Assembly: GCF_055900595.2 (NCBI RefSeq)
Contig: NZ_CM148325.1
Direction: 5' to 3' (one strand)
DNA length: 64,000 nucleotides
Shown here: positions 34,369 to 38,021 of the stretch, in pieces
Layout: each line of letters begins with the position of its first letter
Numbering within the stretch: the first letter of the stretch is position 1
Translations under genes and position numbers: made by a program
Notes under the pieces: generated by a model
Seen by the model: only the letters and a program-made list of their open reading frames with translations
The model's database searches: none
Told to the model about the DNA's origin: nothing

Positions 34369-35148
34369 TTAGTAGCTGCTGGCGCTCTTACCGTCGCCGT
34401 GGCCCAGCGCTTTCAGCAGGCTTGCCAGCAGGCTGGAAGCACCAAAGCGGTAGTGACGCGCATCTGCCCAGTCAGCACCGAACAGTTCATCTGCAATCGC
34501 GAGATATTTCTGCGCATCTTCCGCAGTACGCACGCCGCCCGCAGGTTTGAAACCAACGGTTTTCTCTACGCCCATATCACGGATCACTTCCATCATGATG
34601 CGCGCGCTTTCCGGCGTCGCGTTCACTGCAACTTTACCGGTAGAGGTTTTGATGAAATCAGCACCCGCTTTAATGGAGATTTCAGACGCTTTGCGGATCA
34701 GCGCTTCGTCTTTCAGTTCGCCGGTTTCGATGATCACTTTCAGCAGTACATTCGCTGCCGCGCAAGCCTCTTTACAGGCTTTCACCAGGTCAAAACCAAC
34801 CTGCTCGTTACCCGCCATCAGCGCACGGTACGGGAACACCACATCAACTTCATCGGCACCGTAGGCGATTGCCGCGCGGGTTTCGGCCAGCGCGATTTCA
34901 ATATCGTCGTTACCGTGTGGGAAGTTGGTTACCGTAGCGATACGGATTTCCGGGGTGCCCTGCTCTTTCAGCGTTTTGCGAGCAATCGGGATAAAGCGAG
35001 GATAGATACAGATAGCGGCGGTATTGCCGACCGGAGTTTTGGCCTGATGACACAGAGCGATCACTTTCTCATCGGTGTCGTCGTCATTCAGGGTGGTCAG
35101 GTCCATCAATTTCAGTGCACGCAGGCTGCTTGCTTTCAGATCAGTCAT
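34369..35148 (-). CDS. deoC: deoxyribose-phosphate aldolase DeoC
   Basis: ORF 34369..35172; likely start at [26 protein letters not shown] (259 aa). Confidence 0.93.
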
Positions 35149-35192: not shown

Positions 35193-35208
35193 TGTTAGTA
35201 TTCTAACA
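35193..35208. promoter_or_regulatory. DeoR operator O2 at deoP2
   Basis: 16-bp palindrome TGTTAGTATTCTAACA about 45 bp upstream of deoC, matching the DeoR consensus TGTTAGAA/TTCTAACA. Confidence 0.8.
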
Positions 35209-35406
35209 TCGACTCCGCAACACACTTCGATATACATCACAATTAAGGAAATCTACTTACAAAATTGCATTACTGTAATGCGATCTGGTTCAAATAATTC
35301 ACTTTCAAATGAATGCGTCAGTGGTGGCAAACGCATCAGGATCAAAGTGAACATCACGAAACTTCTTACAATGGCGCATCACCTTCGGCATAAAAAGGAA
35401 CAGAAG

Positions 35407-36957
35407 ATGCCCACTTCTCATGAAAATGCACTGCAACAACGTTGCCAGCAAATTGTCACCAGCCCGGTACTTAGCCCGGAGCAGAAACGCCATTTTCTGG
35501 CGCTGGAAGCAGAAAACAATCTGCCTTACCCGGCGTTGCCTGCCGAAGCCCGCCGCGCGCTGGATGAAGGTGTAATCTGCGATATGTTTGAAGGTCATGC
35601 GCCGTATAAACCGCGCTATGTCTTACCCGATTACGCCCGTTTTTTGGCCAACGGTTCCGAATGGCTGGAGCTGGAAGGCGCAAAAGATCTTGATGACGCA
35701 CTCTCTCTGCTGACCATTCTTTACCACCACGTTCCTTCGGTCACATCGATGCCGGTCTACCTGGGGCAACTGGATGCGTTGTTGCAACCGTATGTTAGAA
35801 TTCTAACACAAGACGAGATCGATATTCGAATAAAACGTTTCTGGCGTTATCTCGACAGAACCCTGCCAGACGCCTTTATGCACGCCAATATTGGCCCATC
35901 TGATTCACCCATTACCCGTGCGATTTTACGCGCAGACGCAGAGCTGAAGCAGGTTTCACCGAACCTGACTTTTATCTACGATCCTGAAATCACCCCTGAT
36001 GACCTGCTGCTGGAAGTGGCGAAAAACATCTGTGAATGTAGCAAACCGCACATCGCCAACGGTCCCGTGCATGATAAAATTTTCACAAAAGGGGGCTACG
36101 GGATTGTGAGCTGTTACAACTCACTGCCGTTAGCGGGTGGTGGCAGCACGCTGGTACGCCTCAACCTGAAAGCCATTGCCGAGCGCAGTGAATCGCTGGA
36201 TGACTTCTTTACGCGCACTCTACCGCACTACTGCCAACAGCAGATCGCCATCATCGATGCGCGGTGTGAATTCCTCTATCAACAATCACACTTCTTTGAG
36301 AATAGCTTCCTGGTGAAAGAAGGGCTGATTAACCCTGAACGTTTTGTGCCAATGTTTGGCATGTACGGACTGGCAGAAGCGGTTAACTTGCTGTGTGAAA
36401 AAGAAGGAATTGCCGCGCGTTACGGTAAAGAAGCCGCCGCAAATGAAGTGGGTTATCGCATTAGCGCGCAACTGGCGGAGTTTGTCGCCAATACCCCCGT
36501 GAAATATGGCTGGCAAAAACGCGCCATGTTACACGCACAGTCGGGGATAAGTTCCGATATCGGCACCACGCCGGGCGCGCGTTTGCCGTATGGCGATGAG
36601 CCAGATCCGATCACCCATCTGCAAACTGTCGCCCCGCATCATGCTTATTATTATTCCGGCATCAGCGACATTTTGACGCTCGACGAAACCATCAAACGTA
36701 ATCCGCAGGCGCTGGTACAGCTTTGCCTCGGTGCCTTTAAAGCCGGAATGCGTGAATTTACCGCCAATGTCAGCGGTAACGATCTGGTTCGCGTTACCGG
36801 TTATATGGTGCGTTTGTCGGATCTGGAAAAATATCGTGCCGAAGGCTCACGTACCAACACCACCTGGCTGGGAGAAGAAGCCGCACGCAACACTCGTATT
36901 CTGGAACGCCAGCCGCGCGTTATAAGCCATGAACAGCAGATGCGCTTTAGTCAGTAA
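35407..36957 (+). CDS. yjjI: YjjI-family glycine radical enzyme (function unknown)
   Basis: ORF 35278..36957; start likely at [15 protein letters not shown] (516 aa); C-terminal glycyl-radical-like motif [13 protein letters not shown]. Confidence 0.85.
35793..35808. promoter_or_regulatory. DeoR operator O1 at deoP1, located inside the yjjI coding region
   Basis: Perfect 16-bp palindrome TGTTAGAATTCTAACA, 600 bp from the O2-like site, matching the reported 599-bp O1-O2 spacing. Confidence 0.8.
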
Positions 36958-37792
36958 GATTATCCCCTTCTCCTGCGTTGACGGGCCAGGCAGTCGTCTG
37001 GCTCTGTTTTTACAGGGCTGTAATCTGCGCTGCAAAAACTGTCACAATCCGTGGACAATGGGGCGCTGTAATGATTGCGGGGAGTGCGTGCCACAGTGTC
37101 CGCATCAGGCGTTGCAGATTGTTAACAGCAAAGTAGTGTGGAACGCAGCCGTCTGCGAGCAGTGTGATACCTGCCTGAAGATGTGTCCACAACACGCTAC
37201 GCCGATGGCGCAATCCATGAACGTGGACGAGGTGCTTAGTCACGTCCGCAAAGCGGTGCTGTTTATTGAAGGGATAACGGTAAGCGGCGGTGAAGCCACG
37301 ACCCAGTTGCCGTTTGTGGTGGCGCTGTTTACTGCTATCAAAAATGATCCACAACTGTGTCATCTCACCTGTCTGGTGGACAGTAACGGCATGTTGAGCG
37401 AAACCGGCTGGGAAAAATTACTCCCGGTGTGCGACGGCGCGATGCTCGATCTCAAAGCGTGGGGAAGCGAATGTCATCAACAGCTAACCGGACGCGATAA
37501 TCAGCAGATCAAGCGCAGCATTAGTCTGCTTGCCGAGCGCGGCAAACTGGCAGAACTGCGTTTGCTGGTAATCCCTGGCCAGGTGGATTATTTGCAGCAT
37601 ATCGATGAGCTGGCGGCGTTTATCAAGGGACTTGGCGATGTTCCGGTACGCCTGAACGCGTTTCATGCTCACGGCGTGTATGGCGAGGCGCAAAGCTGGG
37701 CGAGCGCCACGCCGCAAGACGTTGAGCAATTAGCTGATGCGTTACGGGAGCGCGGGGTAAGTCGGTTGATATTTCCAGCGCTGTATTTGTGA
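36929..37792 (+). CDS. yjjW: glycyl-radical enzyme activating protein YjjW (radical SAM / ferredoxin-like Cys clusters)
   Basis: 287-aa ORF with CxxCxNP and additional Cys clusters ([24 protein letters not shown]); overlaps the yjjI 3' end. Confidence 0.85.
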
Positions 37793-38021
37793 CATGCCGG
37801 ATGCGGCCTACGGTTCGGCACAGGCCTGTAGGCCTGATAAGACGCGTCAGCGTCGCATCAGGCATTCTGCGCCAACTGCCGGATGCGGCGTGAACGCCTT
37901 ATCCGGCCTACGGTTCGGCACAGACTTGTAGGCATGATAAGACGCGTCAGCGTCGCATCAGGCATTGTGCGTCGACTGCCGGATGCGGTGTGAACGCCTT
38001 ATCCGGCTTACGAAGGGCAGA
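37793..38021. repeat. BIME/REP cluster (several REP units)
   Basis: Repeated GCCGGATGCGGCGTGAACGCCTTATCCGGCCTACG and TGATAAGACGCGTCAGCGTCGCATCAGGCA units. Confidence 0.9.

Follow-up and report, generated by a model that had tools for sequence, protein, structure and literature searches.

The genes yjjI and yjjW occupy positions 35407 to 37792 of a stretch of 64,000 nucleotides (nt) from contig NZ_CM148325.1 of the RefSeq assembly GCF_055900595.2, here called the window, and are best explained as a glycyl radical enzyme and its dedicated activase tied to anaerobic nucleoside or pentose metabolism, a reading to which we give a probability of about 0.5. The parts of this reading are not equally firm. 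Its sequence and a structural model of YjjI indicate that the pair almost certainly encodes a genuine enzyme with its activase, and the gene neighbourhoods make a link to nucleoside or pentose metabolism probable on balance, whereas the proposal that YjjI is a redox-neutral eliminase acting on a ribosyl substrate is a tentative one. An earlier note, made from the letters of this stretch alone, had described a conserved enzyme system rather than a new locus. This is borne out, since yjjI-yjjW is a known, already annotated locus and family, with matches to TIGR04040 and TIGR04041, and the region is found at 80% coverage or more in 5422 of 5426 complete Escherichia coli genomes. The features of the pair are as follows (aa, amino acids; SAM, S-adenosylmethionine).

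35407-36957, plus strand: yjjI coding sequence, YjjI-family glycyl radical enzyme, 516 aa
35611-35634, plus strand: codons of P69-R70-Y71-V-L-P74-D75-Y76, the most conserved motif of the family, invariant or nearly so
36112-36114, plus strand: codon of Cys236 (V-S-C-Y-N loop), the predicted thiyl-radical cysteine and the only invariant cysteine among 52 homologues
36787-36825, plus strand: codons of the glycyl-radical loop, residues 461-473, with Gly465, the predicted radical glycine, at 36799-36801
36929-36957, plus strand: overlap of the yjjI stop and the yjjW start, 29 nt, with translational coupling predicted (open reading frame map and RefSeq annotation)
36929-37792, plus strand: yjjW coding sequence, radical-SAM activase, 287 aa (TIGR04041, Radical_SAM and Fer4 matches)
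37019-37042, plus strand: YjjW C31-x3-C35-x2-C38, SAM-binding [4Fe-4S] motif (translation; Radical_SAM match)
37067-37186, plus strand: YjjW ferredoxin-like insert with two CxxCxxCxxxC motifs, C47-C57 and C76-C86 (Fer4, Fer4_7 and Fer4_9 matches at residues 44-90)

The open reading frame (ORF) of yjjI extends on the plus strand from 35278 to 36957, and the ATG at 35407, with an AGGA six bases ahead of it (35397-35400), gives the 516-aa product of the RefSeq annotation. An in-frame ATG upstream, in the 35278-35406 region, would lengthen the product to 559 aa; this start was rejected, as it is unsupported by the RefSeq annotation and by the homologues and overlaps the CRP region of deoP2. YjjI matched PF11230 over its whole length (E-value 4e-220; 731.7 bits for a cut-off of 23) and TIGR04040 with 787.6 bits (curated cut-off 498.3), and the product of the adjoining yjjW matched TIGR04041 with 399 bits (curated cut-off 250.2). 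These family matches are beyond chance; both NCBIfam entries carry the label 'hypoth_equivalog'. The next-best NCBIfam matches of YjjW were the activases of HypD, PFL, CutC, HPAD and the sulfopropanediol enzyme, and its domain matches comprise Radical_SAM, Fer4_12 and several Fer4 families. With three cysteine motifs and the 29-nt overlap, YjjW is the overlapping, Cys-cluster-rich activase that the earlier note had taken it to be. Comparable overlaps, or gaps of at most 45 nt, separate yjjI from the activase gene in distant homologue pairs. The best DNA identity of the yjjI-yjjW stretch was 98.9%, and the protein was identical in strain R32_14_1F. Across Enterobacterales, YjjW is about 65-84% identical to the E. 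coli protein, YjjI 80-91% and DeoC 92-96%, YjjW thus diverging much faster. The convergent yjjW-yjjV intergenic region (37793-38021) is filled with palindromes of the repetitive extragenic palindrome/bacterial interspersed mosaic element type (GCCGGATGCGGCGTGAACGCCTTATCCGGC and GCCTGATAAGACGCGTCAGCGTCGCATCAGGC units), which explains why the query had a median of 9 matching places per E. coli genome.

Residue conservation was assessed in 23 YjjI homologues down to 30% identity, and the cysteines in the wider set of 52. Conserved polar positions include E62, R70, Y71, D75, D123, D150, H159, N186, K213, N218, N238, R251, E305, H376, Q378, D384 and R392. The C-terminal glycyl-radical motif noticed earlier in the 516-aa protein lies at residues 461-473, where Gly465 and Arg462 are invariant in the 23 homologues. 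On profile alignment the RVTGY of YjjI stands opposite the RVSGY of PFL ('IRVSGYAV'), so that the radical glycine is present in its aligned place, and R462-V-T-G465-Y has the C-terminal R-V-x-G-[FWY] form of glycyl radical enzyme loops; the strict PROSITE-style pattern, as we take it to read, is unmatched at two positions (L for [STIV] and T for [CSA]). The profile search placed Ser235-Cys236 of YjjI opposite Cys418-Cys419 of PFL, and the neighbouring N238 is nearly invariant. This PFL alignment came from the profile, whereas a single-sequence search of the PDB sequences with YjjI returned noise only. The family is small, with 541 clusters among 1.84 billion representative proteins, only about 25 of them full length. 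It is common in Enterobacterales, Vibrio, Photobacterium, Shewanella and Haemophilus, facultative anaerobes of gut and sea, and also in rumen and gut Lachnospiraceae. One homologue (locus L093, 1264-2805), on a contig of 30% GC content, has one in-frame TGA and a stored protein that differs from the table-11 translation, which suggests that TGA is a sense codon there (code 4 or 25).

An AlphaFold model of YjjI was built from the family alignment, with a mean predicted local distance difference test score (pLDDT) of 92.1 and a predicted template modelling score (pTM) of 0.91. The model has the ten-stranded alpha/beta barrel common to PFL and ribonucleotide reductase (RNR). Cys236 lies at the tip of a beta-hairpin formed by strands 231-234 and 238-241, and Gly465 at the tip of another, formed by strands 460-462 and 467-469. 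Foldseek searches of the PDB ranked first the class III RNRs of Prevotella copri, Streptococcus thermophilus and phage T4 (E-values 5e-18 to 1e-14; template modelling (TM) scores of about 0.7, 0.74 for the best NrdD), followed by PflD, the diol and hydroxyproline dehydratases and PFL. The comparison with PFL-like enzymes that had been proposed for this protein therefore confirmed the fold, with class III RNR slightly nearer than PFL. Among the 23 family members, Pfam detected PFL-like domains in 16 (best E-value 2e-9) and NRDD in 15 (E<=1; best 3e-15), E. coli YjjI itself falling below both thresholds; for NRDD (PF13597) it scored 11.1 bits for a gathering threshold of 26.2, and for PF02901 and PF01228 it gave no match at E<=1.

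The likeness to NrdD raises the question of whether YjjI is a second, simplified anaerobic reductase, which would use formate as reductant to turn a ribosyl compound, be it a nucleoside, a nucleotide or a ribose phosphate, into its 2-deoxy form and so supply DeoC or deoxynucleoside salvage. Class III RNRs are the closest solved relatives, the motifs EPPK and LDxLLxP(F/Y) are common to the N-terminal halves of both proteins, the NRDD matches of family members reach 3e-15 and DeoC-containing operons adjoin the pair. An hhalign comparison of the YjjI family with E. coli NrdD gave an E-value of 5e-5 over 407 columns at a probability of 68%; this weak alignment leaves a gap at the 'FNC' of E. coli NrdD, which holds the reducing cysteine. 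A sub-profile alignment, likewise weak (HMMER E-value 0.67), placed the 'TNCC' of S. thermophilus NrdD opposite R70-Y71 of YjjI. The two alignments are mutually consistent and match the structural ranking. A sub-profile of YjjI residues 50-135 did not retrieve PFL, so that a likeness between the PFL segment 'GRIIGDYRR' (Arg176) and a ten-residue segment of YjjI is putative. Where NrdD has its reducing cysteine, in Asn-Cys, YjjI thus has Arg70-Tyr71, and a second conserved cysteine was not found among the 52 homologues. Nor does YjjI have a zinc site of the CxxC...CxxC type, residues 430-516 holding a single, unconserved cysteine (C439), and its 516 aa leave out both the Zn-ribbon and the allosteric region of NrdD, with neither ATP-cone nor specificity site. 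Its finger loop is shorter (C-x7-GG, C-x17-GR in NrdD), and its activase is of the PFL-AE/ferredoxin type, a three-cluster protein of 287 aa, whereas NrdG has 154 aa. E. coli moreover has nrdDG elsewhere, about 140 kb from yjjI-yjjW, and its nrdD mutants are not known to grow under strictly anaerobic conditions, so YjjI is presumably no replacement for NrdD. We therefore consider the reductase an unlikely account. As the reducing cysteine is missing, redox-neutral elimination is the likelier chemistry for YjjI, ahead of reduction.

The other radical enzymes differ from YjjI in their own ways. PflB is about 240 residues longer and has a Cys-Cys pair where YjjI has Ser235 and the single Cys236, and PFL-AE lacks the ferredoxin-like insert of YjjW. 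Sugar-phosphate lyases of the PflD/YbiW type have an eliminase-type Cys-loop motif and are encoded in operons with phosphotransferase system and aldolase genes, whereas YjjI has an S-C-Y-N loop and nucleoside or deo neighbours. These lyases are PFL-like proteins of about 765-810 aa (PDB 8id0, 8yjo and 8yjn), and 1,5-anhydromannitol 6-phosphate is bound in 8id0. The radical 1,2-eliminases (glycerol and propanediol dehydratases, CutC, HypD and IslA) use the same ferredoxin-domain type of activase as YjjI and catalyse redox-neutral eliminations, the reaction class that we favour for YjjI. Enzymes of the glycerol dehydratase, CutC and HypD type have a G-C-x-E motif on the Cys loop, which is not found in YjjI, whose loop reads V-S-C-Y-N. 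As the reducing cysteine and zinc site, the Cys-Cys pair and the G-C-x-E motif are all absent, YjjI stands outside the NrdD, PFL and G-C-x-E eliminase families and forms a compact branch of its own within the superfamily.

The link to nucleosides comes from the gene neighbourhoods. Distant loci were collected by a metagenome scan with an alignment that excluded enterobacteria and by look-ups of exact proteins. They represent 34 non-enterobacterial lineages with YjjI proteins less than 70% identical to one another, and all neighbours within 6 kb were clustered unlabelled before representatives were annotated. The activase adjoins YjjI in nearly all of these lineages, and the following families recur beside the pair (ABC, ATP-binding cassette).

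Duplicated ABC ATPase: 14 of the 34 lineages
BPD_transp_2 permease: 11 lineages
Bmp/PnrA-type nucleoside-binding protein: 9 lineages
PfkB kinase: 6 lineages
Inosine-uridine nucleoside hydrolase: 5 lineages
Purine/uridine phosphorylase (PNP): 4 lineages
ADP-ribosylglycohydrolase-family protein: 3 lineages

A nucleoside-specific marker is found near the pair in 12 of the 34 lineages and in a thirteenth that was added later, hence in at least 13 of about 37 distant lineages, and these are scattered across the YjjI family tree. Labelled genes number 60 among the 282 neighbours nearest the pair (gene ranks 1-5) and 7 among the 118 farther out (ranks 6-11). At three loci (L118, L169 and L162) the pair is set among the genes of a nucleoside ABC transporter, after that for the binding protein and before that for the ATPase, in the order Bmp-YjjI-activase-ABC-permeases, and the L118 operon ends with a PfkB kinase and a pseudouridine-5'-phosphate glycosidase-type protein (PsuK/PsuG). 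Another locus, L140, reads YjjI-activase-Cdd-Pdp (pyrimidine nucleoside phosphorylase)-DeoC-DeoB-PNP, with a transporter in divergent orientation. Close relatives of the L169 enzyme (76-79% identity) belong to Lachnospiraceae. ADP-ribosylglycohydrolase-family genes accompany a nucleoside hydrolase and PfkB beside YjjI at L091 (1187-2206), L095 (7449-7874), L154 and L167 (5805-7835), a set which we take to resemble yegTUV of E. coli. In three gammaproteobacterial lineages a convergent LysR-type regulator gene follows directly after the activase gene, at L086 (10466-11362), in Vibrio (L178, 9465-10601) and in Shewanella (L179, 9441-10451); it is possibly a dedicated regulator, whose ligand could then reveal the substrate.

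Within the enterobacteria, 80 loci were obtained by a profile scan of genome contigs with a mixed alignment, the matches listed being all Enterobacterales. The position of the pair divergent to the deo operon, as reported in the earlier note, is correct for the window, where deoC lies on the minus strand at 34369-35148. Among the matches listed, the same arrangement occurs in Escherichia, Salmonella, Citrobacter, Enterobacter, Kluyvera, Kosakonia, Hafnia and Edwardsiella, whereas in Proteus and Providencia the pair is not beside deoC and is flanked by ytjB, serB, radA and nadR. The earlier note had treated the proximity of deo as mere location; the comparison of genomes suggests that it is functionally meaningful. 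Kluyvera ascorbata (L053, 10381-11658) has a gene for a CNT-family (NupC-like) nucleoside transporter between yjjW and yjjV. Similar-sized yjjW-yjjV gaps, with unannotated content, are present at L033, L049, L051, L055, L057, L058, L060, L061, L064, L065, L068, L073 and L081-L083, Trabulsiella and Pseudocitrobacter loci being among those with such a gap.

These neighbourhoods also bear on another explanation, in which YjjI is a glycyl-radical lyase or dehydratase whose substrate is some common central metabolite unrelated to nucleosides, such as a 2-oxo acid, a diol or a different sugar phosphate. Common anaerobic or catabolic control, together with synteny by descent, would then account for the neighbourhoods. 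In many lineages the two genes form a cassette on their own, and in Shewanella an aldehyde dehydrogenase gene, typical of aldehyde-forming radical dehydratases, lies directly upstream of it. PFL-like Pfam matches were found in 16 of the 23 members, R251 of YjjI lies opposite the arginine of the PFL 'GARANL' segment, presumably the pyruvate-binding Arg435, and the Proteus context, set against the K-12 gene order that we assume, suggests regional synteny. This explanation fits poorly with the unbiased count, whose top six neighbour families are nucleoside genes, with the three lineages in which the pair lies within a nucleoside ABC transporter operon, with the independent lineage L140, which repeats the complete deo gene set, and with the fall of neighbour enrichment with distance. 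We regard it as possible but doubtful.

Several points nevertheless weigh against the nucleoside or pentose reading and the chemistry proposed with it. About two thirds of the distant lineages are without a nucleoside neighbour, and the pair is isolated or has unrelated genes beside it in Vibrio, Shewanella, Proteus, Providencia, an actinobacterium and an archaeon. We take ytjB, serB, radA and nadR to lie beyond deo in E. coli K-12, the position of ytjB being confirmed in the annotation of the window; if that order is right, the flanks in Proteus mean that the enterobacterial adjacency to deo could be inherited synteny and not a product of selection. The residue mapping between YjjI and NrdD comes from weak alignments (hhalign probability 68%, HMMER E-value 0.67), and the proposed eliminase chemistry is without sequence precedent, as S-C-Y-N stands in place of G-C-x-E. 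Finally, the co-expression of yjjI has been published as nitrogen metabolism (PMC3228777).

A role of YjjI in nitrate, nitrite or nitrogen metabolism was proposed from its co-expression with narG in E. coli and Salmonella, yjjI and narGHJI falling in one bicluster, in which FNR and NarL-like motifs occur (PMC3228777), and yjjI is co-induced with respiratory genes. Among the neighbours in the 34 lineages, however, no gene for nitrogen oxides or nitrogen assimilation is recurrent, and the co-expression with narG can be attributed to shared FNR control. We know of no glycyl radical enzyme that acts on inorganic nitrogen species, and consider this role very improbable. Control by FNR is documented: this regulator binds at yjjI and activates it directly, with a chromatin immunoprecipitation (ChIP) peak about 50 base pairs (bp) upstream of the yjjI start and FNR-dependent anaerobic induction (PMC3688515), yjjI was entered as FNR-activated in a study of the HU regulon, and yjjI of Yersinia intermedia is induced anaerobically (PMC3792023). 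An inactive evolutionary relic would be consistent with the lack of any phenotype or activity reported in the searchable full text (PMC and bioRxiv, with subscription journals outside it). Such a relic is hardly credible, given a core gene shared by 5422 of the 5426 E. coli genomes, a protein identity of 85-90% across genera, a catalytic glycine and cysteine that are invariant down to 30% identity, a retained activase and a regulated expression.

According to the reading that we prefer, a glycyl radical enzyme of anaerobic nucleoside or pentose metabolism, yjjI-yjjW would be transcribed from an FNR-activated promoter in the absence of oxygen. By analogy with related enzymes, YjjW, with one SAM-binding cluster and two auxiliary [4Fe-4S] clusters, would reductively cleave SAM, and the resulting 5'-deoxyadenosyl radical would abstract hydrogen from Gly465 of YjjI to leave a stable glycyl radical. 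This radical would then be relayed to Cys236 on the opposing finger loop, and the thiyl radical formed there would abstract a hydrogen atom from the substrate. To judge from the gene neighbourhoods, this substrate may derive from nucleoside breakdown. Free purine or pyrimidine bases, together with ribose 1-phosphate or ribose 5-phosphate, are products that all the linked pathways (hydrolase and kinase, phosphorylase and mutase, PsuK/PsuG, Cdd) share. If the substrate were a pentose phosphate, this would explain why many genomes have no transporter or extra enzyme beside the pair, and would also explain the invariant basic residues R70, K213, R251 and R392. Radical elimination on a ribosyl compound or pentose phosphate would correspond to the first half of RNR catalysis: loss of a hydroxyl, or of some other leaving group beside the radical, would give a keto or deoxy sugar, and the product may feed DeoC-type or aldehyde metabolism. 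YjjI might thereby found a new glycyl-radical reaction class, derived from RNR by loss of the reducing cysteine and performing only the elimination half-reaction on ribose 5-phosphate, ribose 1-phosphate or a ribonucleoside, an idea that we put forward with considerable reserve. The earlier statement that no substrate is assigned agrees with the same searchable full text, where none was found, and where nothing relevant was retrieved on a role of glycyl radical enzymes in the metabolism of nucleosides or deoxyribose.

The pair is also interlocked with the regulatory region of deo. From 35148, deoC is followed by deoA, deoB and deoD, running away from yjjI, and the features of the shared region are as follows.

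34369-35148, minus strand: deoC, first gene of deoCABD, divergent neighbour of yjjI (ORFs and RefSeq annotation)
35193-35208: DeoR operator O2, TGTTAGTATTCTAACA, at deoP2 in the deoC-yjjI intergenic region, kept in neighbouring genera
35332-35372, plus strand: predicted yjjI promoter, with an FNR-type site CGCATCAGGATCAA (right half-site ATCAA, 35341-35345) and a -10 element TACAAT (35367-35372)
35793-35808: DeoR operator O1, perfect palindrome TGTTAGAATTCTAACA, within yjjI (Y-V-R-I-L-T, a variable loop); 0 mismatches, 0.19 expected in the window
36072-36087: candidate DeoR operator OE, TGATAAAATTTTCACA, a weaker palindrome within yjjI, 279 bp from O1

GGATCAA and TACA(A/C)T are conserved promoter blocks in an alignment of 11 genera, the former about 22 nt upstream of TACAAT, and their sequence points to a putative FNR-type site ahead of yjjI. 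The best intergenic match to the FNR consensus, at 35227-35240, was rejected, as it is actually the CRP site of deoP2; its reverse complement, TGTGATGTATATCGAA, is the CRP ChIP-seq motif for yjjI/deoC. CRP ChIP-seq in enterotoxigenic E. coli gave an intergenic peak on this 35227-35240 motif and a second peak within yjjI, about 544 bp off (PMC4287617).

The window contains two matches to the DeoR operator palindrome, O2 and O1. Among the matches listed, O1 is found at exactly +386 of yjjI, with 0-2 mismatches, in all 72 loci of the genera with deoC beside yjjI, and is absent from all 8 loci of Proteus and Providencia, where deoC is not adjacent. We take the 279 bp between O1 and the candidate OE to be the spacing given for these operators in the deo literature. 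As both are intragenic, deoP1 and two of the three DeoR operators would lie within the yjjI reading frame, and transcription from deoP1 would therefore run antisense to the first ~400 nt of yjjI. The predicted yjjI promoter lies between O2 and O1, inside the DeoR loop, and DeoR looping may repress yjjI.

Nothing that was found here overturns expectations. Among the glycyl radical enzymes of E. coli, YjjI appears to have been overlooked, and it is unmentioned in a 2025 preprint that names candidates for the glycyl-radical signal of the cell. What is added here is the placement of YjjI as an RNR-like, non-reductase branch, and with it a testable functional hypothesis for a core E. coli gene. The candidate substrates are narrowed to a short list of nucleoside-related compounds that can be purchased, and Butyrivibrio sp. 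WCD3002 provides a cultured organism with a YjjI 79% identical to the metagenomic enzyme of the L169 nucleoside operon. An RNR relative that only eliminates, if confirmed, would bear on the divergence of ribonucleotide reductases and other radical enzymes. Ribonucleosides could then also enter DeoC, aldehyde and glycolytic metabolism without oxygen in Enterobacteria and Lachnospiraceae of the gut.

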